Source of the DNA: an uncultured Desulfovibrionaceae bacterium
Lineage (GTDB): Bacteria > Desulfobacterota > Desulfovibrionia > Desulfovibrionales > Desulfovibrionaceae
Reading direction: 5' to 3'
Assembly (NCBI GenBank): GCA_964369995.1
Contig: CAYJHH010000001.1
Location: forward strand, 3,048 to 67,047
Length of the DNA stretch: 64,000 bases
Each line of letters opens with the position of its first letter. Positions within the stretch are counted from its first letter, which is position 1. Shown here piece by piece: positions 3,260-42,991 of this stretch. The notes under the pieces were generated by a model, which ran no database searches, had not been told where the DNA came from, and worked only from the letters and a program-made list of their open reading frames with translations. Position numbers and translations under genes: made by a program.

Positions 3260-3457
3260 TTACCTTGAATGAGGCTTCTTCCATAAACCTTTAAAATCTT
3301 CTTCCACAAAGCCCTCTACTCTATAACCAGTGACATTAGGTATTCTCAGGGTAAAATACCCGTCATCGTACCCAGTATCATCTTGAATAATTTCACCTAC
3401 CAAATAGCCACGATAGGCTTTTTTTAAGCGTACTTTATCCCCTACTTTATAAGCCAT
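3260..3457 (-). CDS. Hypothetical small protein (65 aa)
   Basis: The ATG at 3457 is preceded by GGAGG with a 5-nt spacer. This start is preferred over the track start at 3481. The sequence MAYKVGDKVRLKKAYRGYLVGEI is SH3/KOW-like. Confidence 0.5.
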   Translation of the reverse strand: MAYKVGDKVRLKKAYRGYLVGEIIQDDTGYDDGYFTLRIPNVTGYRVEGFVEEDFKGLWKKPHSR

Positions 3458-3458
3458 T

Positions 3459-3986
3459 CTAACCTCCGTACTGCGTTTCATGCGTCACTCTTGCAAGTTT
3501 CACCATGGCCAAAATGGCCTCAATAGCTTCATGCCCTTCTTTGGTAATGCGATCGAGCTGATCACGAGGAATATTACCATCAGAAATGCTCATGGCCGTT
3601 TCACTGGCGAACTCTCCAAATTCCTTTATGGAATTAGAAAGGTTTTTCACCAGTTCCCCGCTGCACCCCGTAGCCTCAGGCAACTTTAAAACAACGCAGC
3701 CACGCTCTCGAGCTAGAAAAGTTAAAGGAGCATCACTCTCACACGCATCCATAAATGCAAGCAGCATATCAGCGCCAAGCTTATGCCCTGGCTGCCGTGA
3801 TATTTCGCTCATCATGGTTTGGTAATTGGTATAGCCAACCACCTCCCAAATGCTTTTGGCAGTTAAACCAGATGGAGCATTCTTCACCATTTGATGCACA
3901 ATGGCAGTAAGCGAGGGGTATTCTTTTACAGTGTAGTTTTTAGTCATGCTAAAAATCTCCAAAAATTGCGTGGTCATAATCGTCAA
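3459..3986 (-). CDS. Phage regulatory protein, 186-CII/CP76-like (tentative)
   Basis: 175 aa in the early-left operon next to the Cro-like gene. The layout ...YQTMMSEISRQPGHKLGADMLLAFMDACESDAPLTFLARERGC... followed by an acidic helical C-terminus resembles phage 186 CII-type regulators as I recall them. Confidence 0.4.
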   Translation of the reverse strand: MTIMTTQFLEIFSMTKNYTVKEYPSLTAIVHQMVKNAPSGLTAKSIWEVVGYTNYQTMMSEISRQPGHKLGADMLLAFMDACESDAPLTFLARERGCVVLKLPEATGCSGELVKNLSNSIKEFGEFASETAMSISDGNIPRDQLDRITKEGHEAIEAILAMVKLARVTHETQYGG

Positions 3987-4016
3987 AAAATCTTACGTCA
4001 TAATAAAAAGTTTATC

Positions 4017-4286
4017 TTAAGTCTCAGCTTGCTCAACCAGCCCGGGGAACATGGGAGTGCGAGGCTTACGCCGCCAAGTAACAGGTTCTGGCAAAAGTTC
4101 CATGGGAAAACCAAGCCGTAGACACTTCGCATGTAATTCTGTCGGCATGGTATCTCTTCGCAAAATCACGGATACTCGTTGATTTGAAACACCAAGTTCC
4201 TTGGCCAAAGCTACATTAGTAATGTCTCTTTCTACCATCCAAGCTTTGAGTTTCCGCTCTCGAGGGATTTCATTGGGGCTTGTCAT
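4017..4286 (-). CDS. Cro/Ner-like HTH regulator
   Basis: 89 aa with HTH ITNVALAKELGVSNQRVSVILRR. Divergent from the CI-like repressor gene. Confidence 0.6.
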   Translation of the reverse strand: MTSPNEIPRERKLKAWMVERDITNVALAKELGVSNQRVSVILRRDTMPTELHAKCLRLGFPMELLPEPVTWRRKPRTPMFPGLVEQAET

Positions 4287-4390
4287 AGGTAAAGTCCTTT
4301 GTTAAATATAAAAGCCTGTAGGCGTTTACTGTTGGAGTTTTCGCTTTTTCCGTTGAACTATACATAACCATTTTTCAGACACTATTCAAG

Positions 4391-4425
4391 ACAAAAAAAG
4401 ACAATTGTAACAAAAAAAGACAATT
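4391..4425. promoter_or_regulatory. Two identical 16-bp direct repeats (candidate operators) in the divergent switch region
   Basis: ACAAAAAAAGACAATT occurs at 4391-4406 and 4410-4425 (19-bp period). The repeats sit immediately upstream of the CI-like gene start (4440), between the divergent HTH genes. Confidence 0.4.
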
Positions 4426-4439
4426 AAAGGCTCCGTGCA

Positions 4440-5153
4440 ATGTATATAACTAATGAAAACGAGCTATTAGAAAGAATAAAAAAAATCATTAACACCTTAG
4501 CTAGAGGCAAAAAAGCTATTTTCGCCAGAGCTATTGGGGTTAATGAAAGATATGTTGCTAGATATATACAGCAAAATCGTGGAGACTGGTTCATGGGTCA
4601 CTTAAAAGCCATATGCAAAGCCTACCCAACTATCAGTGAAAAATGGCTATACAGTGGAACAGGAGAAATGCTCGTGCCAGAGCGGCCAAACCCCATTCGT
4701 AGCGTCACAAATGCTAAAGATTTACTTATAGGAGACCTTCTCTGGGAATTTTTTAGCCTTAAAGATGCATCGCTTGCTGAAGTAAAAAAACAATGTAACT
4801 TTGATGATACATTCAATCAGGTGATGGAAAGTAGCCGCTACCCAACATTTACAGAGCTCGAAACCTTACACAAAGTATATGATTTAAATGTAACCTATCT
4901 CTTTACCAACAGAAAAGAAGATATGGAAGGTAAAACCATTTCAAAAGAGCTTGAAAAACTTACTGATGAGCTAGTTCAAACTCAAATAGACAATAAGCAA
5001 TTAAATGCAAAATTAATTAATGCCTTAGAAGAAAACAGCGAGCTCAATAAAGAGCTACACAAGGCGAAAGAAAGTGCAAAAACTACGGAAAAAGGTACGA
5101 AAACTGCTTCTGGCAAGACATTTGCGAAAAGTATGTCACCTGCGAAAAATTAA
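4440..5153 (+). CDS. CI-type phage repressor-like protein (tandem HTH-like modules plus coiled-coil tail)
   Basis: FARAIGVNERYVARYIQ ... ISEKWLYSGTGEM matches the Phage_CI_repr-type motif (..WLl.G.G.m). A second similar module follows (VYDLNVTYLFTN), and the C-terminus is a Lys/Glu-rich coiled coil. Confidence 0.6.
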   Translation: MYITNENELLERIKKIINTLARGKKAIFARAIGVNERYVARYIQQNRGDWFMGHLKAICKAYPTISEKWLYSGTGEMLVPERPNPIRSVTNAKDLLIGDLLWEFFSLKDASLAEVKKQCNFDDTFNQVMESSRYPTFTELETLHKVYDLNVTYLFTNRKEDMEGKTISKELEKLTDELVQTQIDNKQLNAKLINALEENSELNKELHKAKESAKTTEKGTKTASGKTFAKSMSPAKN

Positions 5154-5209
5154 ATACGAAGCATTAATCAAAGAAATTTGAGTAAAACATTGCATGAGGC
5201 TAAATCATA

Positions 5210-5569
5210 ATGCTAAAAACAATAACTTTTGTCACACTTTGTTTGCTACTCACTCCCCTTTCGATAAAGGCGCAGTCAGAGGAACAGGCAGACTGGAAAG
5301 AGGGATATAGCGATCCATGCTTTGCCTACTCTGACATGGCAAAACACCTTATGAATGGAAGACAAAGCGGCGCTTCCATAAAAATGATTCTGGAACGACT
5401 GGATAAAAAAGCAATACTGCTCAAACTCAGCCCTTCTGAGAAAGAAAAATTTGCTTATATTATAAGAGAAGCCTTCACCGTGCCATACTATAAAGATGAA
5501 AGCGCTAAGGAAACAGCCGCTACAGAATTTGAGGCGAAAATATACCTTTGGTGTTTGAACGAGAATTAG
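5210..5569 (+). CDS. Secreted/periplasmic small protein (119 aa)
   Basis: N-terminal signal peptide MLKTITFVTLCLLLTPLSIKA/QS. AT-rich. Co-directional with the repressor, with no intervening terminator seen. Confidence 0.55.
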   Translation: MLKTITFVTLCLLLTPLSIKAQSEEQADWKEGYSDPCFAYSDMAKHLMNGRQSGASIKMILERLDKKAILLKLSPSEKEKFAYIIREAFTVPYYKDESAKETAATEFEAKIYLWCLNEN

Positions 5570-5647
5570 GAGCAAGGGCGTTGCTATGCTAGATAGCTAC
5601 ACCAAACTCTCTATTATTATAGAACTTTAAATATAAATGTGAATGTT

Positions 5648-6181
5648 ATGCAACATACTTGGCAAAAAATCATTAAAACCACAATAACAATAACGTTTTT
5701 TTTATATATGCTACACACCTCATACGTCTTTACACCGGCAGATATTATTTCGATTATAGGACTTTTTTTTGCAATATTAAGCTATATCGAAGCTAAGAAC
5801 GCTGCAAGGAATGCTAAAAGCGCTGAAGAAAGAGCGCAAGAAGCAGTTGAAATTACTCGAGACAAAGCGAATAAATATTCTGACCACCTTTTACTACATA
5901 GCTGTCAAAGACTAGTCGGATTAATACAAAAGGCGTTAAACACAGAAAACAAGCAAGACAGCAAAGAGCTATGTGACTTTATTCGCTTAGAAATTGTAGA
6001 TTTTCGTGATGGAGTAACAGAAATTTCAAGGAAGCAAAAAAGAATTATTCAAGATTTAATTTCGTGCTTATCCAGATATGACGGAACTGTGGATAAAAAA
6101 GAAGAATTAACAAACAGTACTTCAAATTTTCGAGATTTGATTTCAGAATTAGCCCATAATAAAGGAAAATCTAATGATTAG
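5648..6181 (+). CDS. 2-TM membrane protein with helical cytoplasmic domain
   Basis: Two hydrophobic helices (TITITFFLYMLHTSYVF and IISIIGLFFAILSYI) are followed by a charged helical domain. The ATG at 5648 is preferred to the GTG at 5639. The gene overlaps the next gene by 8 nt. Confidence 0.55.
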   Translation: MQHTWQKIIKTTITITFFLYMLHTSYVFTPADIISIIGLFFAILSYIEAKNAARNAKSAEERAQEAVEITRDKANKYSDHLLLHSCQRLVGLIQKALNTENKQDSKELCDFIRLEIVDFRDGVTEISRKQKRIIQDLISCLSRYDGTVDKKEELTNSTSNFRDLISELAHNKGKSND

Positions 6182-6533
6182 TAAAAAAACCCTAGCGTTT
6201 ATAGAAAGTATCATTCAAAAAACAGAACTTGGACAAATAAATTGGATAGTTGCTAGAAGAGATGAGTTTAAATTTTCAACACCAACGGCTTCTGTATATG
6301 TATCACAGGCTTTGGATATTGACCATGAAATAAGAGTAACATCTTTTGCAGTTCATGACGAAAATGGAACAATAGTTGATCACTTTGATTACAACGTTGA
6401 CTATAGAACTCCAGAGACTTCTCCTATTGAGGCTTTATATAATTATGCACGAAGAAATGCTTATAAAGCTGATGATATTATGGATTCTATCATACGTGAC
6501 TTGGAGTTAAATTTTGAAGTTGGCAATATTTAA
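6174..6533 (+). CDS. Hypothetical soluble protein (119 aa), translationally coupled to the 2-TM protein
   Basis: The start ATG lies inside the last codons of the upstream gene (8-nt overlap). No recognisable motif. Confidence 0.55.
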   Translation: MISKKTLAFIESIIQKTELGQINWIVARRDEFKFSTPTASVYVSQALDIDHEIRVTSFAVHDENGTIVDHFDYNVDYRTPETSPIEALYNYARRNAYKADDIMDSIIRDLELNFEVGNI

Positions 6534-6567
6534 TCTTACTTAAATTAACTTTTTACGAGGAGGCATT

Positions 6568-6852
6568 ATGGATCCAACAGATTACGAATACGATGAAGAA
6601 ATGAGATGTGCTGCTGAATTTCTTTTAGATGAAGGTATATTAGAAGGAGCCACAGAAGGAATAGCTAAACAAATTACAAGCAAAGGTTGGGCAAAGCTTA
6701 CCTCTAGGCAGCAAGAAGTTTTTATAGAATATGCGCTTCCTAAGGCTCAAAGAGATTGCAAACGTTGCCATGGGGAGATTCCATTAACTGAACTTGGAGT
6801 TGGTGGTGACTATTGCAGCTGGTGCGACCACCAAATAGACAAAGGGAATTAA
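6568..6852 (+). CDS. Zinc-ribbon protein (94 aa)
   Basis: A strong SD (GAGGAGG) precedes the ATG. The N-terminus is acidic and the C-terminus carries CKRC-x17-CSWC (CxxC...CxxC). Confidence 0.55.
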   Translation: MDPTDYEYDEEMRCAAEFLLDEGILEGATEGIAKQITSKGWAKLTSRQQEVFIEYALPKAQRDCKRCHGEIPLTELGVGGDYCSWCDHQIDKGN

Positions 6853-6894
6853 ATATTTACAACACATAAACAAGCCTATTTGAGATTTTAACCT

Positions 6895-8256
6895 ATGACA
6901 AAATTTACACATCTAGAAAATGTAGACATATCATCGCTACTTCTTGATACAAGCAATCCTAGATTAGGATTGCTTTCAAGCCAGCAAGATTGTATTTATG
7001 AAATGTTTAGCGATGAAAATGATGCAAACAAGCTTATGGAGCTCATAAAAAGTATTGCTACGCATGGAATTATGGACCAACGAATCGTAGTTGTAAAAAG
7101 TGAAGATGAAAATTTTTACACAGTAAAAGATGGTAACAGACGCATTACTGCGCTCAAAGTTTTAAACAATCCTGCAGAAGCGCCTGAAAAATTACGTTTG
7201 AAGCTTAAAACTATTATTGAGCAAGCTCAAACACCAATTACAGAAACAGTAAATTGTGAGCTAGCAGCTGACCTTGAAACGGCGCACCTTGATATGGAGC
7301 TTAAGCACACCGGTGAGCAAAAGGGAGCCGGGCAAATAAGTTGGGGAGCACGCGAAAAAGATAATTTTGCTTTAATGACTGGAAAAACTCCCAAGTATGC
7401 TCTATCCAAACAAATTTGTGAGTTTTTAAAAGCTCAAGGAATTGTTGACACTGATAAAGCTGACATTACAACGCTAGAGCGTATTTTTACCAAAAGCACT
7501 TTAGAAAAATTGGGTATCTTAGTCACTGACTCGAAAATAAATTTCACCAACATAACGCCAAGCACGATAAACATCTTATCTTTAATAGTGGAAGATTTTT
7601 CAACCAAAAAGCGTAAAGTAGGGGATGTTTACAACAAGGAAGAAAGGGACAAATATATAGATGAAGTATTACAACGAGATTCCACAGGAGAGCAACCAAC
7701 CAAGGTAGCCATTCCCCCTCAAGCCGATGCACCACTTCAACAAAATGATACCCCAACAGGGGCACCGAGCATAGGACTGCAAGCTCCTCCTAAACAGTCA
7801 CCTCCGCAATATAGAGGCCCGACAACCGCTACTTGGGATAGAAAAAGACTTATACCACGCTACACATCACTACACATTCCCAAAAGAGAAGCAAAAGCAT
7901 ACAACGTTTTTGTAGAACTCAGTAGTAAAATTGATGTAAGAGAAGCTCCGATAGCAGCAAGCGTAATGTTTCGACTTTTAATTGAATTTTCAGTAAGTTA
8001 TTACATAAAGAAAAACAATATTCAAAGTCCTAAACATTTACACTCTCTTATTGACAATGCTGCAAAGCATATGGTTAGTCAAAACGTCTTAAAAAACGAC
8101 GATATAAAAAATCTGCTGTCAGGTTGCGCTGCGCCTATTATTAAAACCCAAGATTTAAATGCATTTGTTCATGATTCTAATTTTCAACCAACTCCACAAA
8201 ATATAAACACTGCTTTTGAAAATATGCAACATTTCCTAGCCTTGTGCTGGAAATAA
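6895..8256 (+). CDS. ParB/Srx-fold N-terminal domain protein with P/Q-rich linker and helical C-terminal domain
   Basis: ISSLLLDTSNPRL and VKDGNRRITALKVL match ParB N-terminal domain boxes. A low-complexity linker (PPQADAPLQQNDTPTGAPSIGLQAPPKQSPPQ) separates an uncharacterised C-terminal domain. Confidence 0.6.
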   Translation: MTKFTHLENVDISSLLLDTSNPRLGLLSSQQDCIYEMFSDENDANKLMELIKSIATHGIMDQRIVVVKSEDENFYTVKDGNRRITALKVLNNPAEAPEKLRLKLKTIIEQAQTPITETVNCELAADLETAHLDMELKHTGEQKGAGQISWGAREKDNFALMTGKTPKYALSKQICEFLKAQGIVDTDKADITTLERIFTKSTLEKLGILVTDSKINFTNITPSTINILSLIVEDFSTKKRKVGDVYNKEERDKYIDEVLQRDSTGEQPTKVAIPPQADAPLQQNDTPTGAPSIGLQAPPKQSPPQYRGPTTATWDRKRLIPRYTSLHIPKREAKAYNVFVELSSKIDVREAPIAASVMFRLLIEFSVSYYIKKNNIQSPKHLHSLIDNAAKHMVSQNVLKNDDIKNLLSGCAAPIIKTQDLNAFVHDSNFQPTPQNINTAFENMQHFLALCWK

Positions 8257-8310
8257 TTTTCTGGCCAAATTCTTTTTTTCTTGTTAAGCACAAGAAAAAG
8301 GCAGGAACAT

Positions 8311-9144
8311 ATGTTTTATTCACCGCTACGGTACCCTGGAGGAAAAGGGAAAATTTCCTCACTTGTAAAAAATATTTTGCGGCAAAACAACCTCATGGAC
8401 TGCACCTATGTAGAACCCTACTCTGGTGGTGCTGGAGTTGCGTTGGCTTTACTTCTTGAAGGTTTTGCAAGGTATATAGTAATAAATGACCTTGACCCAG
8501 AAATTTATGCTTTTTGGGAAATAGCAGTCAATAATACTGATTACTTATGCGACCGTATAGAACATGTAAAAGTTTCTATGGATGAATGGTATAGGCAAAA
8601 AGAAATCAATGCTAATCATGAAGCATATGATATAAAAGACGTTGCATTTTCAACATTTTTTCTGAACAGAACCAATAGGTCTGGTATTATTAAAGGCGGA
8701 GTTATAGGGGGCACTAAGCAGGACGGAAAGTATAAAATTGATGCACGATTTAACAAAGCAAATCTTATTGAAAGAATCAAACTCATTGGAAAGTACCGCA
8801 AGCGAATTTCCGTCCACAATAAAGATGCTTTAGAGCTCGTGGATTTTATGGCTGCAACTAACAATCAGAAAATTTTCTTCTATTTTGACCCCCCTTATTT
8901 TAATAAAGGGCAAACTCTTTATAAAAATAGCTACACAGAAAATGACCACGCAGCAGTGGCCCAAAAAATCCAAGCATTAAATCTGCCATGGATTGTGACA
9001 TATGATGATGTGCCCAACATTAGAGATTTATATTCACCCTCTTCCGCACAAGACCTTCAAATCAATTACTCAGCATGTAAACGTGGAAAAGGGCAAGAAG
9101 TTCTGTTTTATAACAACATAGAGCTCCCACATATCACGGCTTAA
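8311..9144 (+). CDS. Dam-family (D12 class) N6-adenine DNA methyltransferase
   Basis: N-terminal SPLRYPGGK and catalytic FYFDPPY motifs. The ATG at 8311 is preferred to the TTG at 8281. Confidence 0.85.
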   Translation: MFYSPLRYPGGKGKISSLVKNILRQNNLMDCTYVEPYSGGAGVALALLLEGFARYIVINDLDPEIYAFWEIAVNNTDYLCDRIEHVKVSMDEWYRQKEINANHEAYDIKDVAFSTFFLNRTNRSGIIKGGVIGGTKQDGKYKIDARFNKANLIERIKLIGKYRKRISVHNKDALELVDFMAATNNQKIFFYFDPPYFNKGQTLYKNSYTENDHAAVAQKIQALNLPWIVTYDDVPNIRDLYSPSSAQDLQINYSACKRGKGQEVLFYNNIELPHITA

Positions 9145-9497
9145 CTTTCCCTACACACTTTCTTCCCTAACTCACGAGCTAGCCCCTTATATTAGCGGCG
9201 GCTCGTGCGTTTAGCCTTGCTTGAGGGACAAGAGTTTTTTATGCGCCACCTTTGCCGCAAATGTTCATACGGCTAGACTGCGCCCTATAAGTCGCACAAC
9301 CCCCTGCATCAGGCGAATGCCATACACCAAAATCATAACCGGTGATTCCATACGACTTCATAATTTTCCTTCTTTTTTTCTCTCCCCCTTGACAAAACCG
9401 TATCACACGACCACAATGAAATCGTGTAAGAGCAAATACCGTGCAGGGGAGTAATAACTATTTATATTTTATAATTTTATATTTTAGGAGATTTATT

Positions 9498-9854
9498 ATG
9501 ACAATTGAAGAATTATATGACTCCATTCCTGGCATTAAATCTGCACCTTTCGTGTGGAAAAACGGCAACACAACCACTGGCACTCGCATTGAAATGATTA
9601 CAATGGATGCCCGCTACCTACAGAACACCTCCAATATGATAGATAATCATGTTAAGGAGTACGAAGCTATGAATTCCCCAGCGCAAGACATTCCTGAAGC
9701 TTCTCGAAAAATTGAGGAGCTGGAATTTGCATTAGATTTTTTAGAAAACAAGCTCAAAAGTGACGGTAAATCCCTGGATACTCACCCGAGCATGACTCTA
9801 AAAGCCCTTAATGTAACGACCCAAAACTTAATACATAATTACGACAAAGAATAA
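9498..9854 (+). CDS. Hypothetical protein (118 aa)
   Basis: AGGAG SD lies 7 nt upstream of the ATG at 9498. The 3' end overlaps the convergent ORF 9839-10075. No motif. Confidence 0.45.
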   Translation: MTIEELYDSIPGIKSAPFVWKNGNTTTGTRIEMITMDARYLQNTSNMIDNHVKEYEAMNSPAQDIPEASRKIEELEFALDFLENKLKSDGKSLDTHPSMTLKALNVTTQNLIHNYDKE

Positions 9855-10075
9855 CAAACCAACACCCCAGCATCCACAAGCCCCTGCACATGCTCTTCCA
9901 CGCTGGCGGTGGACACTTCTGCTCCGCACCAGTCCTTGGCACGTTTGGCAGAGCCGAGCATCCACTCCTCAAGAGTGGGCTCAGGGATAAATTTCATTTG
10001 CCAAAGCTGTTCCGCAATGCCTTGGAGGCTCTCCGCCTCCAAGGTTTCATCACTTAAAGTTTTAAATTTATACAT
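9839..10075 (-). CDS. Hypothetical small acidic protein (78 aa) downstream of the amidoligase
   Basis: The internal ATG at 10075 is preceded by GGGAGGGGG, 13 nt after the amidoligase stop. This start is preferred over the track start at 10156. Confidence 0.45.
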   Translation of the reverse strand: MYKFKTLSDETLEAESLQGIAEQLWQMKFIPEPTLEEWMLGSAKRAKDWCGAEVSTASVEEHVQGLVDAGVLVCYSLS

Positions 10076-10088
10076 ACCCCCTCCCTTT

Positions 10089-11048
10089 TTACGCTGCACT
10101 AAGCACTGCTGCACGGTTACGATAAAAGATTTGTAAGAACTCAGCAACACCATCAAAGAGGCTGCCGGAGGTCACAGGCTGAGCCACAGCTGCGCTGCGC
10201 ACTTGGTAGCCGATGGCACGATCATACACGATGTGCATACCGGCTTGACGCAAACGAGTAACGGCTGCCCTGGCAGAATGCACTTGCCAATCAAAGCGTT
10301 GGCACATGGCCTCCAAGGTTACAACACCCTCAGCGCTTTCAAAAAACATGGCGGCAAGCTGACCAGACACACCTTGCAAGCTTGGCACAGCTACCTGCAC
10401 AGCTGGAGCATCCACACGACTTTTGCACTCAGTAATAAAAGCGTCAAGCAAACGCACCCAGTTCACGGCCTTGGGAGCATTCAAGGTGCCGGAGTGCTGA
10501 CGAAACTCCACAGTTCCATGAACATGGTGAGACTTCAAATTTACTTTAAAGTAACGTCCGCTTTGTGCCTCCACAAGTTCCCTCAAAGTTGTAGCATTAC
10601 GAAAAGACGCAGATTGTGCAAGCTCAATTACGCTTCTGCAATAGGAGTTAGTATTACCACGGCGTGAAGGAGGCATGAAAGCATCAATTTCTGCCTCATG
10701 GGCTGCATAGCGTGTTACAATGGTGCGAATATGGTCAACGCTAAGGTCTGCTGCATCAAAATGAACATGGAAGCCACAAGTGCGATTTACAGAGCCGCCC
10801 ATATCATCAAGTGCAGTGGTCACAGCACGAAGCTGCTCAAGCCCTTCTTCACCTTGCAGTACCGGACTTACAACTTCAAAACCGCCACGCACAGAACTGT
10901 CTGGTACGATTTTCCAATGGCAGCGTATGGTGTGATTATAGCCTTCAGCCTGCACACTGACACCAACCAAACGTAAAGCTTGTACCGCTTGCTCACGGCT
11001 AATGCCCACCATTTCCAATTCTACACCAAACTTACGATTCATATTCAA
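10089..11048 (-). CDS. Amidoligase_2 (glutamine-synthetase-like carboxylate-amine ligase) fused to a DUF3489-like wHTH
   Basis: KFGVELEMVG, HWKIVPDSSV..GFEVVSPVL, CGFHVHFDA and HGTVEFRQHSGT match the putative amidoligase family. The C-terminal FDWQVHSARAAVTRLRQAG matches the W-Q-x-H-S-x-R hallmark I associate with DUF3489. Confidence 0.65.
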   Translation of the reverse strand: MNMNRKFGVELEMVGISREQAVQALRLVGVSVQAEGYNHTIRCHWKIVPDSSVRGGFEVVSPVLQGEEGLEQLRAVTTALDDMGGSVNRTCGFHVHFDAADLSVDHIRTIVTRYAAHEAEIDAFMPPSRRGNTNSYCRSVIELAQSASFRNATTLRELVEAQSGRYFKVNLKSHHVHGTVEFRQHSGTLNAPKAVNWVRLLDAFITECKSRVDAPAVQVAVPSLQGVSGQLAAMFFESAEGVVTLEAMCQRFDWQVHSARAAVTRLRQAGMHIVYDRAIGYQVRSAAVAQPVTSGSLFDGVAEFLQIFYRNRAAVLSAA

Positions 11049-11212: not shown

Positions 11213-11392
11213 ATGAAGCGTAAAGAAATCCTGAAAAAGCTATCAAAGTTAGGTTTCAAATTAGAAGAAGGTGGAAACCACACCAAGATTTACAAGGATG
11301 GTGTTTATATGAGCTGCCTATCAAGGCAAGCCGAGATAAACGAAATCATCGTCTTGAAAATCGAAAAACAACTTGGAATCAAACTACGATAG
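11213..11392 (+). CDS. hicA: HicA-family mRNA interferase toxin (59 aa)
   Basis: Hand-translated ORF below the track cut-off: MKRKEILKKLSKLGFKLEEGGNHTKIYKDGVYMSCLSRQAEINEIIVLKIEKQLGIKLR. It has the typical HicA layout (L.k.Gf......g.H.k) and an AGGAGG SD. hicB lies immediately downstream. Confidence 0.8.
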   Translation: MKRKEILKKLSKLGFKLEEGGNHTKIYKDGVYMSCLSRQAEINEIIVLKIEKQLGIKLR

Positions 11393-11438: not shown

Positions 11439-11867
11439 ATGTCACGATATTATTATGTAAGCATAATCCCTGTTAAAGAGGGTGGGTATACTGCTTCTAT
11501 TTTTGACTTCCCAGAAGCCATGACCCAAGGGGACACCATTGAAGAAGCCATTGAAATGGCAGAAGACACTCTGGCCATAAGCGCAGAGGAATATACCAGA
11601 GAAAGAAGAACCATCCCTACCCCCTCAAGCTTTGAGGTCATAAAGCAAAAAACTTTGCAAGAGATGGAAGAGTATAAAGATCATATAGACACAAGCCGTG
11701 ATGTATTTTACCAGCTTTTAAAAATGCCCAACGTGGATACAAAACCTGTAAAAGTTACCGTGAGCTTTCCCAAAAATGTACTTGAGCAGATAGACAAAAA
11801 AGCTGAAGCCTACGGCATGACTCGCTCTGGCCTACTGGCACAATCCGCCCTGGCCTATGAAGGATAA
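11439..11867 (+). CDS. hicB: HicB antitoxin with C-terminal ribbon-helix-helix
   Basis: The N-terminus YYYVSIIPVKEGGYTASIFDFPEAMTQGDTIEEAIEMAEDTL is a HicB-like fold. The C-terminus VTVSFPKNVLEQIDKKAEAYGMTRSGLLAQ is RHH/CopG-like. Confidence 0.85.
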   Translation: MSRYYYVSIIPVKEGGYTASIFDFPEAMTQGDTIEEAIEMAEDTLAISAEEYTRERRTIPTPSSFEVIKQKTLQEMEEYKDHIDTSRDVFYQLLKMPNVDTKPVKVTVSFPKNVLEQIDKKAEAYGMTRSGLLAQSALAYEG

Positions 11868-12031: not shown

Positions 12032-13249
12032 TTAATAGTCAATTCTGTCTTTAAGCTTATAAGGTTTATATGACGAAAGATAAATTGATCCATAAAAATT
12101 AATAACATCCTTATTTTCTTGTATAGATATTGCCTTAAATATTTCATGAATATATTTTCCAATATTTCTTGTCTCTTCATACAAGCACATTATTTCATCA
12201 CTATCTAATAGCTTATTAAATTTTTCAACCAAGCTTAAAAATCTATCACATGATTTAGGATGAGTATTATTCGAACAATATTGTGATTTTGATACTGATA
12301 CGCAAAACTGAGAATAAATATCTAAAAAAATGAAAAAAATAAGTGCAGCTTTTAAAATTTCTTTTCTATTTTCTATAGACACTACATTTAAAATTGCATT
12401 ACAATCAGCGTCATATTCGAAACAATGACTATAATTAGCAACTTTAATATCTCCTTCAATTGCAAATGATTGACAAGCTATCCAGTTAGTAGATTCATAA
12501 TCTAAATGTCCTAACAGAATATGTGCATATTCATGTCCAAAAATAAACTGCATCTGCAATTCAACAGAATTCATTATTTTAGATTCAATCTTCTTATCTA
12601 ATACACATCTTGGGTCTAAGTCAAAATCAAGGGATTCATTTCCTAACATGATTCTCATTGCTATAACCTTAGCTACATCGCAGTCAAGATCGTTGAAACC
12701 ATAAGACGTTCCAAAGAATCCAATTGTCATAAAATAGCAAAAATGAATCATATTTTCTGACGCAACAACAAGATCACCAACAAGAGATTTCATACAAAGT
12801 GCATTCGTATCATTTATCAACATTAATCCTGATGGGATCTGCTTAATTTTCTTCATATTTTTCTTAGAGATTTTTTTTGCGTATCCCTTATGATAATTGT
12901 CAAGCACATGGTAATAGTGCGATAGATGCCAAATATGTCCACGTTCTTCATATATTTTTCTTCTAGCTCTCATGACTCGTGTAGACCTTGGAGCATCAAC
13001 AATAGCATCAACTCTTAATTTTAGTAGATAATCGTACGAATTTTTAATACCCCTTAGTCGTATAATTTCTTTTTTAGAACAAAAGGCTAAGTAAAAAAGC
13101 TCATCTTGCTCTAATCCTTCCGTTTCATGTGCGAAAAAAACATCTTGTACGTGAAAAGAACCATCGGCTCCATCAATAATAAAACCTTGCTTTGCTTTTC
13201 TAATACTGCAGGTGTCAGCAAATATTTTTTGTAAACTATCAATATCCAT
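12032..13249 (-). CDS. Standalone HExxH zinc metallopeptidase, ImmA/IrrE (M78) / Lit (U49)-like
   Basis: 405 aa in a very AT-rich island. FGHEYAHILLGH is followed about 35 aa later by FEYDADCNAI (HExxH ... E-x-x-A-D/N third-ligand motif). The large N-terminal region is of unknown function and no HTH partner is adjacent. Confidence 0.6.
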   Translation of the reverse strand: MDIDSLQKIFADTCSIRKAKQGFIIDGADGSFHVQDVFFAHETEGLEQDELFYLAFCSKKEIIRLRGIKNSYDYLLKLRVDAIVDAPRSTRVMRARRKIYEERGHIWHLSHYYHVLDNYHKGYAKKISKKNMKKIKQIPSGLMLINDTNALCMKSLVGDLVVASENMIHFCYFMTIGFFGTSYGFNDLDCDVAKVIAMRIMLGNESLDFDLDPRCVLDKKIESKIMNSVELQMQFIFGHEYAHILLGHLDYESTNWIACQSFAIEGDIKVANYSHCFEYDADCNAILNVVSIENRKEILKAALIFFIFLDIYSQFCVSVSKSQYCSNNTHPKSCDRFLSLVEKFNKLLDSDEIMCLYEETRNIGKYIHEIFKAISIQENKDVINFYGSIYLSSYKPYKLKDRIDY

Positions 13250-33092: not shown

Positions 33093-34130
33093 ATGAAGAA
33101 AAAAAATATTTGCCGCAAACAGCACTATATCCCGCAAATGTTATTAAGAGGATTTTCAAAAGTTAATACAAAAATTTCTGTACATAAAAAAGATTCGACT
33201 TACGAGACAAACATCAAAGATACTGCTGCAATGCGAGATTTTTACTCTCCTGCAGATGACATGTCGCTAGACGATGTTCTTACTGATCATGAAGCATCAT
33301 CTCTCCAAAAACATATGTCTACTTTACGAAAACTTCCTAACGACAGTGAAGTTTTTAAAAATATAGCTAGTGAAGTAATTCATTTTTTTAATATAAGAAC
33401 AAAGTTTTTTAGAGATATTTTCAGCTCATTTGCAAAAGACACAGTAACATGTTTACAAGATAGCTTAACAAGAGAAGAATTTAAAAAACATACTAAATCC
33501 GGTGCAAGAGAAGCGGCTTTGCAAAATATTAGCGATTATTATGACAAAAACAAAGAAAAAATTCAAATAAATAAAAAACTTTTCTTAAAAATAGCAACAA
33601 ATTACTTTGATAAAAATCCTACTATCATTGAAAAATCTTTAGATCAGACTTATGATAATTTTAATTCAATAGTAGATCATACACTGTCTCAAATACCAAA
33701 TATCGTAAAAGATGGACACACAAAAGGGCTTGCACAAGTTTATGAATCACGTAATATTCCAGAATTTTATTCATCATTCACCTGGGTAATTAAAAAAGAT
33801 ACAAATTATAATTTTATACTACCTGATTGTATCGCAGTAGTAATAACAGAAGAAGGTTCTTCACCTGTTGGCTTTCAGAGCGAAGCTACGAGTTGTGTAA
33901 TTTTATTTCCAATAGCAAAAGATATATTACTGGTAGGAAAAAAAGGAGATTTTAAAGTTGATATATCAAAATTTAATCACTATGCCGCAGAAAATACCAG
34001 TGAGATATTTTTCTGTCACCCACAGTTCACCCCTCCAAATGATCTTCAAGAAATGATAGGAAATAAAATGTCTAAACTTACTTTCGATGAAGGCAAAAAA
34101 GCAGTTGAGAACTATCTCAAGAAAAAATAG
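33093..34130 (+). CDS. DUF4238-like protein (candidate single-gene anti-phage protein)
   Basis: 345 aa, AT-rich, and on the opposite strand to the late operon. The N-terminal KQHYIPQMLLRGF matches the DUF4238 signature as I recall it (HYvPqfyLr.F). SD AGGAG precedes the start. Confidence 0.55.
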   Translation: MKKKNICRKQHYIPQMLLRGFSKVNTKISVHKKDSTYETNIKDTAAMRDFYSPADDMSLDDVLTDHEASSLQKHMSTLRKLPNDSEVFKNIASEVIHFFNIRTKFFRDIFSSFAKDTVTCLQDSLTREEFKKHTKSGAREAALQNISDYYDKNKEKIQINKKLFLKIATNYFDKNPTIIEKSLDQTYDNFNSIVDHTLSQIPNIVKDGHTKGLAQVYESRNIPEFYSSFTWVIKKDTNYNFILPDCIAVVITEEGSSPVGFQSEATSCVILFPIAKDILLVGKKGDFKVDISKFNHYAAENTSEIFFCHPQFTPPNDLQEMIGNKMSKLTFDEGKKAVENYLKKK

Positions 34131-37331: not shown

Positions 37332-37778
37332 TTATTTCTTGCGCATTATCACATCATCACAGGGAACAAACACCACTCCTTTTTTTATGAGAAACACTGC
37401 TATATGCCACCGACCATCGCTTGCAAGAATGGGCGGGGAAGATGTCCACGTGCCTTCATAGCGTGGGAATCCATAGACATCATCCCCCACATACACGCTG
37501 ACTCGCATCTTATCTTGCAGCTCCGGCCTGGCAATGGCGGCAACGTCATCCTCAAGAGCCATATTTGCAATAAGACTTGCAAGGCCAATTTTATCAAACA
37601 ACTGAAAGTTACCCTCTGCATCCATAAGCCAGCGTCTTGCCATACGAACTCTATACAAACCCTCACCACCGCCAAACAAGCTTGCTTTTGCAATCTCAAA
37701 GCGCACTCTTTTAGCGCCCATTCTGACACTAAAAGAGCCGCAAAAAATGCGCTTATTTGTGTCACTTTTGGCACTCAT
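37332..37778 (-). CDS. Hypothetical phage protein (148 aa)
   Basis: The start overlaps the methylase stop (4 nt). No motif recognised. Confidence 0.5.
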   Translation of the reverse strand: MSAKSDTNKRIFCGSFSVRMGAKRVRFEIAKASLFGGGEGLYRVRMARRWLMDAEGNFQLFDKIGLASLIANMALEDDVAAIARPELQDKMRVSVYVGDDVYGFPRYEGTWTSSPPILASDGRWHIAVFLIKKGVVFVPCDDVIMRKK

Positions 37779-39112
37779 ACAAGTAAACTCTCAAGCGTTG
37801 CACCGTCATGCTCACGCTTTGCTTCCATGCCGGTAAAATCTTGCCAGCGGCGAATGATTACCTCAGCAAACTTGGGGTCAAGCTCCATGGTGCAGCATTT
37901 GCGCCCCATAATTTCACAAGCCATAAGCGTAGAACCGGAACCACCAAAAGGATCAAGTACAAGGCCACGTGCAGGGCTTGAGTTGGCAAGCATTTTTTGT
38001 ATGAGCTCCACCGGCTTGGTGGTGGGATGCAAGTCAGAACGTACAGGACGTGGCACGCTGATGACAGTGCCGGGCAATTCCTGCAACGTCACTTCACCTT
38101 CCAAACGGTACAGCTTACCATCCAAGAGCAGCTGCCATGCGCCGTCCTCCAGAGGAACAAATGCTTGAAGGCCGTAATCACGTATGGTCTTTTGCTTACG
38201 ATTGCCATACCATTTATGCGCAGCGCCGGTCTTCCAACCATAAAGAATAGGCTCATGCTGATGATGATAATCACCACGCCCAAGCACAGCCGACTGCTTA
38301 CGCCAAATAAGGCATGCCGCAAGCTTTAAACCAGCTCCCACAAAAGCCCGGCGAAATGCCATACCATCACCAGCTTCAGAGTGAGCCACATAAATGGCAC
38401 CGCCAGCTCGTAAAACCTCAACCATAACTTTATGGGCAGAGGTTAAAAAAAGGTCAAATTTCTCTTTAGTCATTTTGTCGTTTTTGATTTTTCCAGCTTT
38501 CCCTGCGTAGTCCACATTATACGGCGGGTCAGTCCATACCATATCAGCTTCATGGCCTTGCATAAGCCGGCGCATATCTGCAGCACTGGTGGAATCACCG
38601 CACAGCAGCCGATGATTTCCTAAAAGCCAAATCTCCCCATCACGCACAAGAGGGCTCACTGGAACGTCAGGAATAGCATCAGGGTCTTTGCCTTCTTGCA
38701 CTTCAAGCTGCAAAAGAAAATCGTCAATCTCACCTTGGTCAAAGCCCGTTAAGCTCAAATCAAAGTCAGCATTCAAAAGCAACTGCATTTCATGCATAAG
38801 TGCATCTTCATCCCATTCTGCCCATGTGGCAGAACGATTAATAAGAATACGCAAGGAGCGAACTTGTTCTGGAGTCAAATCATCAATGGGAATAACCGGT
38901 ATCGTTGCAATACCACTGGCCAGTGCAGCCTTAAGTCGTAAATGCCCATCAATGAGTGAGCCATCAGATTTGGCAAGTACAGGTGTAACAAAACCCACTT
39001 CGCTGAGTACATGCACCATCTTGCCCACAGCGTGGTCATTTTTACGTGGGTTATTTTCATAAGGCACAAGGCGTTCTATATCCCAATACTCAATACGTAA
39101 TTCTCTCATCAC
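37775..39112 (-). CDS. ParB-like nuclease domain fused to an N6/N4 DNA methyltransferase
   Basis: The N-terminus has LVPYENNPRKND and LIDGHLRLKAA (ParB N-terminal domain). The methylase motifs are MVWTDPPYNVDY and VLDPFGGSGSTLMACE. Confidence 0.85.
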   Translation of the reverse strand: MMRELRIEYWDIERLVPYENNPRKNDHAVGKMVHVLSEVGFVTPVLAKSDGSLIDGHLRLKAALASGIATIPVIPIDDLTPEQVRSLRILINRSATWAEWDEDALMHEMQLLLNADFDLSLTGFDQGEIDDFLLQLEVQEGKDPDAIPDVPVSPLVRDGEIWLLGNHRLLCGDSTSAADMRRLMQGHEADMVWTDPPYNVDYAGKAGKIKNDKMTKEKFDLFLTSAHKVMVEVLRAGGAIYVAHSEAGDGMAFRRAFVGAGLKLAACLIWRKQSAVLGRGDYHHQHEPILYGWKTGAAHKWYGNRKQKTIRDYGLQAFVPLEDGAWQLLLDGKLYRLEGEVTLQELPGTVISVPRPVRSDLHPTTKPVELIQKMLANSSPARGLVLDPFGGSGSTLMACEIMGRKCCTMELDPKFAEVIIRRWQDFTGMEAKREHDGATLESLLV

Positions 39113-42914: not shown

Positions 42915-42991
42915 TGGCGCGCCCAGGAAGATTCGAACTCCCGACCAAGAGCTTAGAAGGCTCCTGCTCTGTCCAACTGAGCTATGGGCGC
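42915..42991 (-). tRNA. tRNA-Arg (anticodon UCU)
   Basis: The reverse complement reads GCGCCCATAGCTCAGTTGGACAGAGCAGGAGCCTTCTAAGCTCTTGGTCGGGAGTTCGAATCTTCCTGGGCGCGCCA. It folds by hand into a cloverleaf with a 7-bp acceptor stem, D arm GCTC/GAGC, anticodon loop CTTCTAA, a GTTCGAATC T-loop, and an encoded CCA. Confidence 0.9.

Follow-up and report, generated by a model that had tools for sequence, protein, structure and literature searches.

A predicted, divergent PD-λ-5 system and four unrelated accessory genes in a variable, repressor-linked cargo block of a Desulfovibrionaceae prophage

In a prophage of an uncultured Desulfovibrionaceae bacterium (contig CAYJHH010000001.1), six genes follow a candidate repressor gene on the same strand. 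They are located in a stretch of 64,000 nt, which is referred to in its full length as the window and whose positions are used throughout; the related contigs compared with it are designated L001 etc. In their order, the genes encode a secreted protein (sp119), a membrane-anchored protein (tm177), a soluble protein (sol119), a zinc-ribbon protein (zn94) and two larger proteins, A and B. A sequence-only reading had put them forward as a candidate for one undescribed defence or superinfection-exclusion cassette, located in the slot which rexA and rexB occupy in phage lambda. The question raised by this locus is whether the string is one new system or a series of independent genes.

The analyses argue for the second possibility. 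Judged by its sequence, the locus is a new, divergent PD-λ-5 in a variable repressor-linked cargo block, plus four unrelated accessory genes. All seven open reading frames (ORFs) are present on the (+) strand as they had been read, and the public gene calls share their starts.

Assignment of proteins A and B to PD-λ-5

Protein A matched the PADLOC model PD-Lambda-5_A (PDLC03998) with an E value of 1e-88 (residues 7–452, profile positions 4–464 of 466), and 27 PD-Lambda-5_A models match this protein. Protein B matched PD-Lambda-5_B (PDLC04018, E 4e-118) over the full length and additionally the model MTase_II (E 2.5e-98). In Pfam, B matched MethyltransfD12 (PF02086, E 2.5e-20). Its EPYSGGAG and DPPY motifs, which are those of an α-class m6A methylase, are intact, and the protein scores under the cut-off of the true Dam equivalog. 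With the D12 match and both motifs, the earlier designation of B as a Dam-family methylase was appropriate.

The match of A to ParB_N of Pfam (E 4.5e-4) was below the cut-off of this database; the fold search backed the ParB assignment. Foldseek found Noc, ParB-CDP and KorB at E values from 4e-4 to 1e-2, and sulfiredoxin was also matched, which agrees with the previously proposed ParB/Srx fold. The AlphaFold model of A (AF2, predicted local distance difference test (pLDDT) 85) comprises a ParB/Noc/KorB-like domain (residues 1–265), a disordered P/Q-rich linker and an all-helical domain (residues 320–453), which was confidently modelled. According to the model and the Foldseek search, this C-terminal domain differs from the dimerisation domain of partition ParBs, and a profile search of it against PDB sequences yielded no match. 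All residues invariant in 36 homologues are present in A: N21, R23, G58, H138, W150, R196, E341, R360, H426 and the GNRR motif, an arginine-rich GxRR box (G80-N81-R82-R83). The closest homologues of A are 35–38% identical, and no protein in a collection of 5.8 billion sequences exceeds 38% identity.

PD-λ-5 was recovered from E. coli ECOR7 by functional selection and was described as 'ParB/HEPN, methyltransferase' (Vassallo et al. 2022, PMC9519451); the HEPN label of A is an assignment by these authors. The E. coli system lowered plating or plaque size of nine out of ten test phages and functions as a two-gene clone. Its cloning needed a strain deleted for the mrr region, and in the authors' view it is a restriction-modification (RM) plus abortive infection (Abi) system in a compacted form carried by prophages (PMC9519451). 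Earlier, fusions of ParB and HEPN domains had been predicted to be RM-linked modules, and so had operons that combine a HEPN gene with genes for a ParB nuclease and a DNA methylase (Anantharaman et al. 2013, PMC3710099).

On the basis of these profile matches, the genes for A and B are a complete PD-λ-5 system. Due to the full-length matches to both PADLOC models and the published validation in E. coli (PMC9519451), the label 'undescribed' falls. PD-λ-5 makes up 2.2 of the 3.9 kb coding length downstream of the repressor, so that the string cannot be counted as a discovery. To our knowledge, neither a structure nor a mechanism of PD-λ-5 has been published, and a divergent representative from a prophage outside E. 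coli therefore usefully broadens the family for mechanistic work.

It was also considered that A and B might serve the phage itself, in that the methylase shields the phage DNA from restriction and the ParB-like protein A acts in DNA handling or partition. Orphan Dam-type methylases are frequent in phages, and proteins with a ParB fold, such as those matched by Foldseek (Noc, ParB and KorB), perform partition and transcription silencing. Furthermore, a second DNA methylase is encoded among the replication genes (window 37775–39112, (-) strand; N6_N4_Mtase, PADLOC MTase_II E 1e-128), so that the phage possesses two methylases on opposite strands. However, the two-gene family emerged from an experimental selection for phage defence, and cloning confirmed the result (PMC9519451); in the window, the pair A-B is encoded on the strand of the lysogeny side, and the lytic genes are on the other one. 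In addition, A-B occurs outside of phages among housekeeping genes (L004), and the C-terminal domain of A is not that of a partition ParB. A service of A-B to the phage is consequently very unlikely.

Neighbourhoods of A-B and exchange of the block

The question whether A and B depend on the other genes of the string was addressed in a census of A-B loci, which comprised nine metagenomic or genomic loci found via the closest homologues of A and about 45 viral loci. The latter came from a scan of viral contigs that yielded 72 loci; adjacency was judged where A is full-length and the downstream DNA is readable. A D12 methylase gene adjoins the gene for A in all nine metagenomic or genomic loci, and the upstream genes differ each time. 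In every judged viral locus, B is adjacent to A as well, mostly in tandem and in eleven cases convergently. The methylases beside the homologues of A are 50–55% identical to B. In L004, the pair A-B stands alone among housekeeping genes.

By tblastn with the repressor, sp119, tm177, sol119, zn94 and the ORF at 9498, no match was obtained in the census loci; a profile search detected the membrane/soluble pair tm177/sol119 beside A-B in one locus, L075. In the census loci, co-occurrence of the genes is confined to A-B, which are always adjacent, and to this one additional neighbourhood of the pair.

These findings bear on the idea that all six genes form one new multi-gene defence system transcribed from the repressor promoter. 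The genes are co-oriented, are closely spaced or overlap, have no terminator between them and show a low G+C content throughout, and the pair and PD-λ-5 are neighbours in L075, too. Nevertheless, about 50 loci contain A-B and, apart from the pair found by profile in L075, none of the other four genes; A-B occurs alone in L004, the pair occurs without A-B in L012, the only relative of zn94 has an unrelated context, and the G+C content varies between the sub-parts. Moreover, the E. coli system functions with two genes (PMC9519451). The census largely refutes a single six-gene cassette, which is extremely improbable.

The strongest argument against a six-gene system came from the comparison with the contig L017 of a metagenome-assembled genome (MAG). 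L017 shares 90.5% nucleotide identity with window 3370–4373 and 93.6% with window 9860–9968. The sequence between these flanks is unrelated, amounts to only 2.2 kb and contains a different repressor gene, an ORF of 74 aa and a very AT-rich ORF of 418 aa. The block 4374–9859 is thus swapped as a whole between phages with flanks that are 90–95% identical, which identifies it as a variable cargo slot and not as a six-gene unit; it also means that immunity specificity and cargo move together. The 418-aa ORF (L017 591–1847; G+C 0.21–0.28) is convergent with the repressor gene, had no PADLOC match and is a further putative cargo gene.

In several other loci, a gene for a helix-turn-helix (HTH) protein of the CI, S24 or Cro/C1 type is located upstream of A in the same orientation (L006/7, L008, L020, L022, L026, L058, L064 and L068), in most of them directly upstream; L008 is Mu-like. 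In other phages, A-B comes after the gene for the P2-type replication protein gpA, after that for the Mu Mor activator, or after a gpA terminase gene plus an HTH_17 gene. PD-λ-5 recurs at several sites in unrelated prophages, and the place behind the repressor gene is one of them; at this landing place repressor and cargo are exchanged together. The earlier expression 'rexAB-equivalent slot' describes this cargo position fairly and does not argue for a new system. In the unrelated prophage L006, the gene between the repressor gene and PD-λ-5 (L006 5302–6135) matched the PADLOC models PDC-M48B (E 4e-22) and LmuA (E 2e-17), another candidate defence family, so that a small defence island follows the repressor gene there.

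The base composition of the string also fits separate acquisitions. The earlier statement that the block is AT-rich in comparison to the structural genes was substantiated: the G+C content is 0.364 in 4440–9144, 0.460 in the late genes (13818–42866) and 0.478 in the divergent cro-like gene. The stretch of low G+C content begins in the intergenic region between cro and the repressor gene, includes the repressor and the operator region and ends at the stop codon of the methylase gene. Within it, the sub-parts differ (sp119 0.41; pair 0.32–0.33; zn94 0.41; A/B 0.37), and the G+C content at third codon positions (GC3) varies, too. The pair is the most AT-extreme part of the block with GC3 values of 0.19–0.26. 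All seven proteins of the string are singleton clusters from one NCBI contig. Exact-protein look-ups for the proteins of the window gave no match. A near-identity DNA search with 4300–9500 found nothing in phage records or, by megablast, in all complete E. coli genomes (5,426).

The prophage itself extends from an integrase fragment at the left edge of the window, where the integrase gene runs off, to the tRNA-Arg(TCT) at 42915–42991, which abuts the replication end at the opposite side. The (-) strand encodes the cro-like HTH protein, the CII/CP76 protein, early genes and an excisionase-like protein and, beyond the would-be attachment site of the circular form, a D5-type helicase, a primase, a methylase, a gpA-type terminase and head and tail genes. 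The integrase gene, the repressor string, hicAB and a DUF4238 gene are on the (+) strand. This strand layout places the string on the lysogeny side, at the divergent switch. The replication genes are found at 39–42.5 kb, as had been read before (D5_N helicase and primase zinc ribbon). Accessory cargo in the immunity region, co-oriented with the repressor, was likewise recognised correctly, as the layout and the exchange in L017 show.

The repressor candidate possesses an N-terminal HTH and a C-terminal coiled coil and lies divergently to the cro-like gene, as is characteristic of the CI type. Its profile matches are weak (phrog_8, transcriptional regulator, E 6e-7; phrog_4, repressor, E 5e-4; HTH_26, E 0.014), and its C-terminal half showed only weak coiled-coil matches (YabA, PspA). 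In Pfam and NCBIfam, no Peptidase_S24 domain, the autopeptidase of RecA-dependent cleavage, was detected in the 237-aa protein; if it is the repressor, induction must go another way. Its N-terminal 71 aa are homologous to the protein at the same position in L017 (E 2e-9), with the shared motif YPxISxxWLYxGxGE. Due to the weak profiles, the position and this homologue in a related phage, the protein is regarded as a candidate CI-type repressor, so that the earlier name stands in a qualified form. The direct repeats in front of the gene (Table 1) are located in the intergenic part that is absent from L017 and appear operator-like. Genome matches to the CII gene were restricted to MAGs labelled Arcobacteraceae and Desulfovibrionaceae.

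Table 1. Features of the switch region and of the repressor-linked block (window positions).
Feature	Position	Strand	Remarks
CII (CP76) gene	3459–3986	-	next after cro-like gene; Phage_CP76 E 3.5e-17
cro-like HTH gene	4017–4286	-	divergent from repressor; Pfam HTH_3 E 5.6e-5, Phage_CI_repr E 3.5e-4
Replaceable mosaic block	4374–9859		operator repeats, repressor, four small genes, A/B, one more small ORF
Two perfect 16-nt direct repeats ACAAAAAAAGACAATT	4391–4425		spacing 19 nt; last ends 15 nt before repressor ATG
Repressor candidate	4440–5153	+	237 aa, CI-type
Secreted protein (sp119)	5210–5569	+	119 aa, signal peptide
Membrane-anchored protein (tm177)	5648–6181	+	177 aa, helical; alternative GTG start 5639
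Soluble protein (sol119)	6174–6533	+	119 aa, α/β; 8-nt overlap with tm177
Zinc-ribbon protein (zn94)	6568–6852	+	94 aa, acidic
PD-λ-5 protein A (predicted)	6895–8256	+	ParB-like N-terminal domain, linker, helical C-terminal domain
Promoter-like element for methylase gene	8262–8290	+	TGGCCA (8262–8267), 17 nt, TAAGCA (8285–8290)
PD-λ-5 protein B (predicted)	8311–9144	+	Dam-family (D12 class) N6-adenine DNA methyltransferase
GC-rich hairpin after methylase gene	9173–9208	+	end of AT-rich stretch; no clean T-run
118-aa ORF	9498–9854	+	last gene of mosaic block; from ORF list

In agreement with the earlier claim for 5154–5209, no sign of a terminator was found directly behind the repressor gene. 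The gaps 5154–5209, 5570–5647, 6534–6567 and 6853–6894 fold no more strongly than shuffled sequence (z -0.24, -0.36, +1.24 and +1.27), and a scan predicted no (+) strand terminator in these four gaps between the repressor gene and gene A (5154–6894). Behind the methylase gene, the RNA of 9135–9250 folds with -31.9 kcal/mol (z -2.35), and the hairpin located there is a possible terminator.

Taken together, it is very probable that the region 4374–9859 represents an exchangeable immunity-plus-cargo module, which contains PD-λ-5, the separate pair tm177/sol119 and two further unrelated cargo genes. According to this explanation, a temperate phage would have integrated beside a tRNA-Arg gene, and its repressor would be followed by a same-strand, terminator-free string of independently acquired morons. 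Protein B would be expressed under the control of its own promoter-like element, perhaps in addition from transcripts that start at the repressor promoter, and would most likely methylate adenines in host and prophage DNA and thereby mark the resident DNA. Protein A would most likely engage unmodified incoming DNA via its ParB-type nucleotide-binding and DNA-binding domain and would then damage nucleic acid via this domain or via the helical, HEPN-like C-terminal domain. The outcome would be a broad block of phages by a compact device for restriction-modification and abortive infection. This mechanism is the most likely one in view of the family membership, the phenotype and the mrr requirement in E. 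coli (PMC9519451) and general knowledge on ParB and HEPN proteins. Of the defence module with a self-marking methylase that had been proposed before, the defence module was thus recovered by PADLOC as PD-λ-5, and the self-marking is probable. Any function of the four small genes is, like this self/non-self mechanism, putative.

Some observations weigh against this explanation. The Foldseek matches of the C-terminal domain of A to HEPN toxins were weak (E 2–5), and the Rx4-6H motif is absent from A; the invariant H426 is part of the sequence LNxxVH, and the invariant R360 is located on another helix. Since the closest homologue of A is only 38% identical, the target range or even the activity may differ from those of the E. 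coli system. Expression of the string in the lysogen is presumed, as its co-transcription with the repressor gene is deduced from the orientation and the lack of terminators. Finally, the pair is found beside PD-λ-5 in two unrelated phages, which leaves room for a functional link and was treated here as co-localisation.

The 54-nt gap between the genes for A and B contains a further conserved feature. The sequence CTGGCC occurs 0–4 nt past the stop codon of A in 12 of 47 loci and, in two further ones, within the final codons of A, at a chance expectation of 0.007 per locus. In 13 loci (window, L001, L004, L006, L008, L009, L019, L020, L022, L026, L028, L066 and L075), TGGCC[AG] is followed by exactly 17 nt, a TAnnnn hexamer, a ribosome-binding site (RBS) and the start of B; the 14th locus with CTGGCC, the convergent L035, was outside this comparison of spacings. 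As the nucleotides of TGGCC[AG] are kept in different reading frames (L006 versus L008), they represent a DNA or RNA signal and not a coding constraint. The arrangement suggests a dedicated, possibly regulated promoter of the methylase gene, and the conserved box indicates how the methylase may be expressed independently of its toxic partner. A sigma-54 promoter was considered for the TGGCC box and rejected, because no GC was seen by eye at the -12 spacing. The region 8230–8315 folds as two hairpins (-26.6 kcal/mol, z -4.1; z -5.0 for a slightly different excerpt), the second of which has an A/U-rich stem of 10 bp over the putative -10 box and the RBS of the methylase gene. Such a strong structure in the A-B gap is not general and is present in only some other loci. 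The methylase ORF could also begin at TTG 8281; the homologues align from ATG 8311.

The promoter scan yielded 26 promoter-like sites at an expectation of 18.4. One of them (TTGACA-17-CACAAT, 9389–9417) precedes the 118-aa ORF, which had no significant family match in Pfam, NCBIfam or PADLOC and a weak match to phrog_16326 (E 0.0083). An antisense ORF (5276–5575) and a (-) strand promoter-like site (5643–5616) were rejected as chance occurrences in AT-rich DNA. In an Rfam scan, the tRNA was the sole match.

The membrane/soluble pair and further accessory genes

The pair tm177/sol119 is the sole part of the string with real potential for novelty, and the attention which had been drawn to the membrane/soluble pairing was justified. 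By exhaustive phmmer, 47 representative relatives of sol119 were found, about 40 of them full-length (101–148 aa), with identities of 25–40% and conserved positions at T17, W24, G65 and an ARR motif. In every readable neighbourhood of these relatives, a co-oriented gene for a protein of 156–232 aa is located directly upstream. The genes overlap by 8 nt in the window, where this had been noted before, and in L010, by 4 nt in L075 and by 1 nt in L011; the other gaps amount to 1–18 nt. At their N-terminus, the upstream partners carry a hydrophobic anchor, behind which a helical region begins; most of them are detectably homologous (tm177 and L012, E 1e-7; L010 and L015, E 3e-15), whereas the partner in L075 is like tm177 in architecture only. 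In tm177 itself, hydropathy revealed one clear hydrophobic segment (residues 27–45) and a marginal one (residues ~9–26), so that one of the two transmembrane segments assumed earlier was confirmed and the second is doubtful.

The bicistronic arrangement is kept in seven independent loci on mobile elements. In L015 the pair occurs with a serine recombinase and a Rep protein, and in L012 it lies in a prophage remnant beside a gene for a BglII-like endonuclease, where A-B is missing. On a 5.9-kb JGI contig with the pair no D12 methylase was recorded, and L015/16 end at the pair. In L075, the pair is located about 620 nt from the PD-λ-5 methylase gene and convergent with it, which is a second, independent co-localisation; the orientation to PD-λ-5 differs from that in the window, and the phages are unrelated.

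The pair is a conserved two-gene module that is present in no defence or family library. None of the 5027 PADLOC models matched the pair of the window or 41 members of the sol119 family; these members had no match in Pfam or PHROG either, and tm177 had none in Pfam, NCBIfam, PHROG or PADLOC. Word-index homology searches with sol119 and tm177 returned only the queries themselves, and tblastn with two members of the sol119 family against phages and plasmids gave no match. The AF2 model of sol119, calculated with the family alignment (pLDDT 93; predicted template modelling (pTM) score 0.84), showed the topology α-β5-α2 and had no significant structural match in PDB or BFVD. Matches with low TM values to T7 Gp1.2, Whirly/PUR-type proteins and uncharacterised phage proteins were rejected as not significant, and the same applied to a Roadblock/LC7 profile (E 0.05). 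Of the 48 sequences in the family, which are the query and its 47 relatives (P0056–P0102), 14 carry an acidic tail ending with [ILVP]PF, which is like the C-terminus of single-stranded DNA-binding protein (SSB); the copy in the window is without this tail. The tail, also written as D[DE][LIV]PF, resembles the C-terminal tip of bacterial SSB. Three long relatives of sol119 (498, 755 and 1416 aa) hold 4–5 repeats of the central β-region.

With regard to the function, the pair may be an independent, undescribed system for defence or superinfection exclusion of the prophage, with sol119 as soluble sensor or regulator and tm177 as membrane effector. RexAB and the membrane/cytoplasmic pairs of mycobacteriophages are models for such a combination. 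The bicistronic order in seven loci with families of both partners, the contexts in mobile elements (L015, L012), the position beside PD-λ-5 in two unrelated phages and different orientations, the lysogeny-side cargo slot and an AT content more extreme than in the rest of the block are consistent with this possibility. On the other hand, no PADLOC model and no significant structural analogue of sol119 was found, homology to RexA or RexB is lacking, and pairs of a membrane and a soluble protein may equally be toxin-antitoxin (TA), regulatory or lysis-related genes. Only five contexts are long enough to be judged, so that the association of the pair with defence islands is anecdotal. It is therefore only tentatively suggested that the pair is an undescribed anti-phage or exclusion module of mobile elements, which tends to adjoin PD-λ-5 and whose target, for sensing or for action, may be the DNA replication or recombination machinery. 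This suggestion is compatible with the exchangeable immunity-plus-cargo module and adds a function to one part of it.

A TA-like addiction or regulatory module, which stabilises the mobile element and has no anti-phage role, would be another explanation. In accordance with it, translation of the small soluble protein is tightly coupled to that of the membrane protein, the pair occurs on small mobile elements, and hicAB is present in the same prophage. Pfam, NCBIfam and PADLOC contained no TA family that matched the pair, and this explanation appears rather unlikely. Many TA systems also act in defence, and for this reason a TA module cannot be separated cleanly from a defence function. As a conserved module absent from the libraries, the pair is a directly testable new defence candidate.

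The earlier statement that none of the four small proteins could be assigned to a family has to be corrected for sp119, which matched PHROG 2315 (phrog_2315, E 8e-16) over nearly the full length; the other three had no family-library match, and PADLOC, which assigned A and B, matched none of the four. The previously read signal peptide of sp119 was supported by the hydrophobic N-terminus and a cleavage site predicted by hydropathy (MLKTITFVTLCLLLTPLSIKA|QS). For sp119, no match in Pfam, NCBIfam or PADLOC and no relatives in phage, viral or metagenome scans were found. It can only be guessed that this protein takes part in exclusion at the envelope.

The C-terminal zinc ribbon of zn94 (CKRCH...17...CSWCDH) was found as it had been described. 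The sole relative is gp66 of Paenibacillus phage Dragolir (41% identity over 66 aa, E 1e-6), the gene of which is located between RinA and HNH genes and is not adjacent to PD-λ-5. Pfam, NCBIfam, PHROG and PADLOC contained no match to zn94, and by tblastn it was not found in any of the PD-λ-5 loci examined. A role as controller of PD-λ-5, by analogy with the HTH_17 gene that precedes A in L001-3 and L009, was rejected due to this lack of recurrence. Scans of viral and metagenome contigs with each of the small proteins revealed no relatives.

Beside the string, the prophage contains other putative cargo. The gene at 12032–13249 ((-) strand, 405 aa, G+C 0.30) encodes a protein with a HExxH motif (GHEYAH) and weak matches to Lit of PADLOC (E 4e-4) and to Peptidase_M48; it may be a Lit-like abortive-infection protease and thus another moron. 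A DUF4238 gene (33093–34130, (+) strand, G+C 0.30), which runs against the direction of the late genes, matched 'DUF4238-Pers' of PADLOC (E 5e-7) and is another defence candidate. Between the cargo block and the tail genes, a HicA-like toxin of 59 aa (11213–11392, (+) strand, identified by eye) and a HicB antitoxin (11439–11867, (+) strand, Pfam E 2.7e-19) are encoded. A protein with an Amidoligase_2 domain (10089–11048, (-) strand, E 1e-44) and a DUF3489-like C-terminus, the gene of which adjoins the cargo block, had no PADLOC match. In the early region, the gene at 2233–2727 ((-) strand) matched nucleoside 2-deoxyribosyltransferase (E 1.3e-9); the following gene (1770–2258) looked related by eye and had no Pfam match.

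Comparison with known systems

The closest counterpart of A-B is PD-λ-5 of E. coli ECOR7. Both are carried by prophages and consist of a gene for a protein of about 450 aa, of the type labelled ParB/HEPN by Vassallo et al., followed directly by a gene for a D12-class adenine methylase of about 280 aa. In contrast to the E. coli system, for which alone protection against phages was shown (PMC9519451), the system in the window has a host other than E. coli, forms the tail of a repressor-linked string of genes and is known from its sequence; protein A does not exceed the 38% identity given above. In the modules predicted by Anantharaman et al. (2013, PMC3710099), a ParB fold and a HEPN-type helical domain are linked to a DNA methylase, a domain logic that A and B would share; they were read as RM-coupled suicide or defence modules. 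That study was purely computational, and in the subfamily of A the canonical Rx4-6H is not visible; the named examples Saro_3948 and MAE_28990 are likened to A by domain logic. In classical type II RM systems, a methylase is paired with an endonuclease of a recognised restriction fold; B matched MTase_II, and its partner is a ParB-fold protein whose nuclease activity is assumed.

The analogy to lambda cI-rexA-rexB holds for the position, as accessory genes including a membrane and a soluble protein lie directly downstream of the repressor gene in the same orientation (the lambda layout was checked). In lambda, RexAB is produced together with the repressor in the lysogen and causes abortive infection by membrane depolarisation. 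The analogy does not extend to the sequences: when all proteins of the window were compared with RexA and RexB by BLASTP, and the two families of the pair by profile searches, no match fell below E 0.26, and homology to RexA or RexB was rejected. Furthermore, the membrane gene is the first one in the window, whereas the soluble gene is the first one in lambda (rexA precedes rexB), and tm177 has one or two hydrophobic segments. RexB has four.

The tin/old/fun region of P2 is a variable hotspot of defence cargo in a temperate phage. Like this region, which PMC9519451 names the 'P2 defence hotspot', the block has a fixed position and conserved phage flanks, and its content varies in close relatives (window versus L017). 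Unlike in P2, the exchanged unit in the window includes the repressor and the operator.

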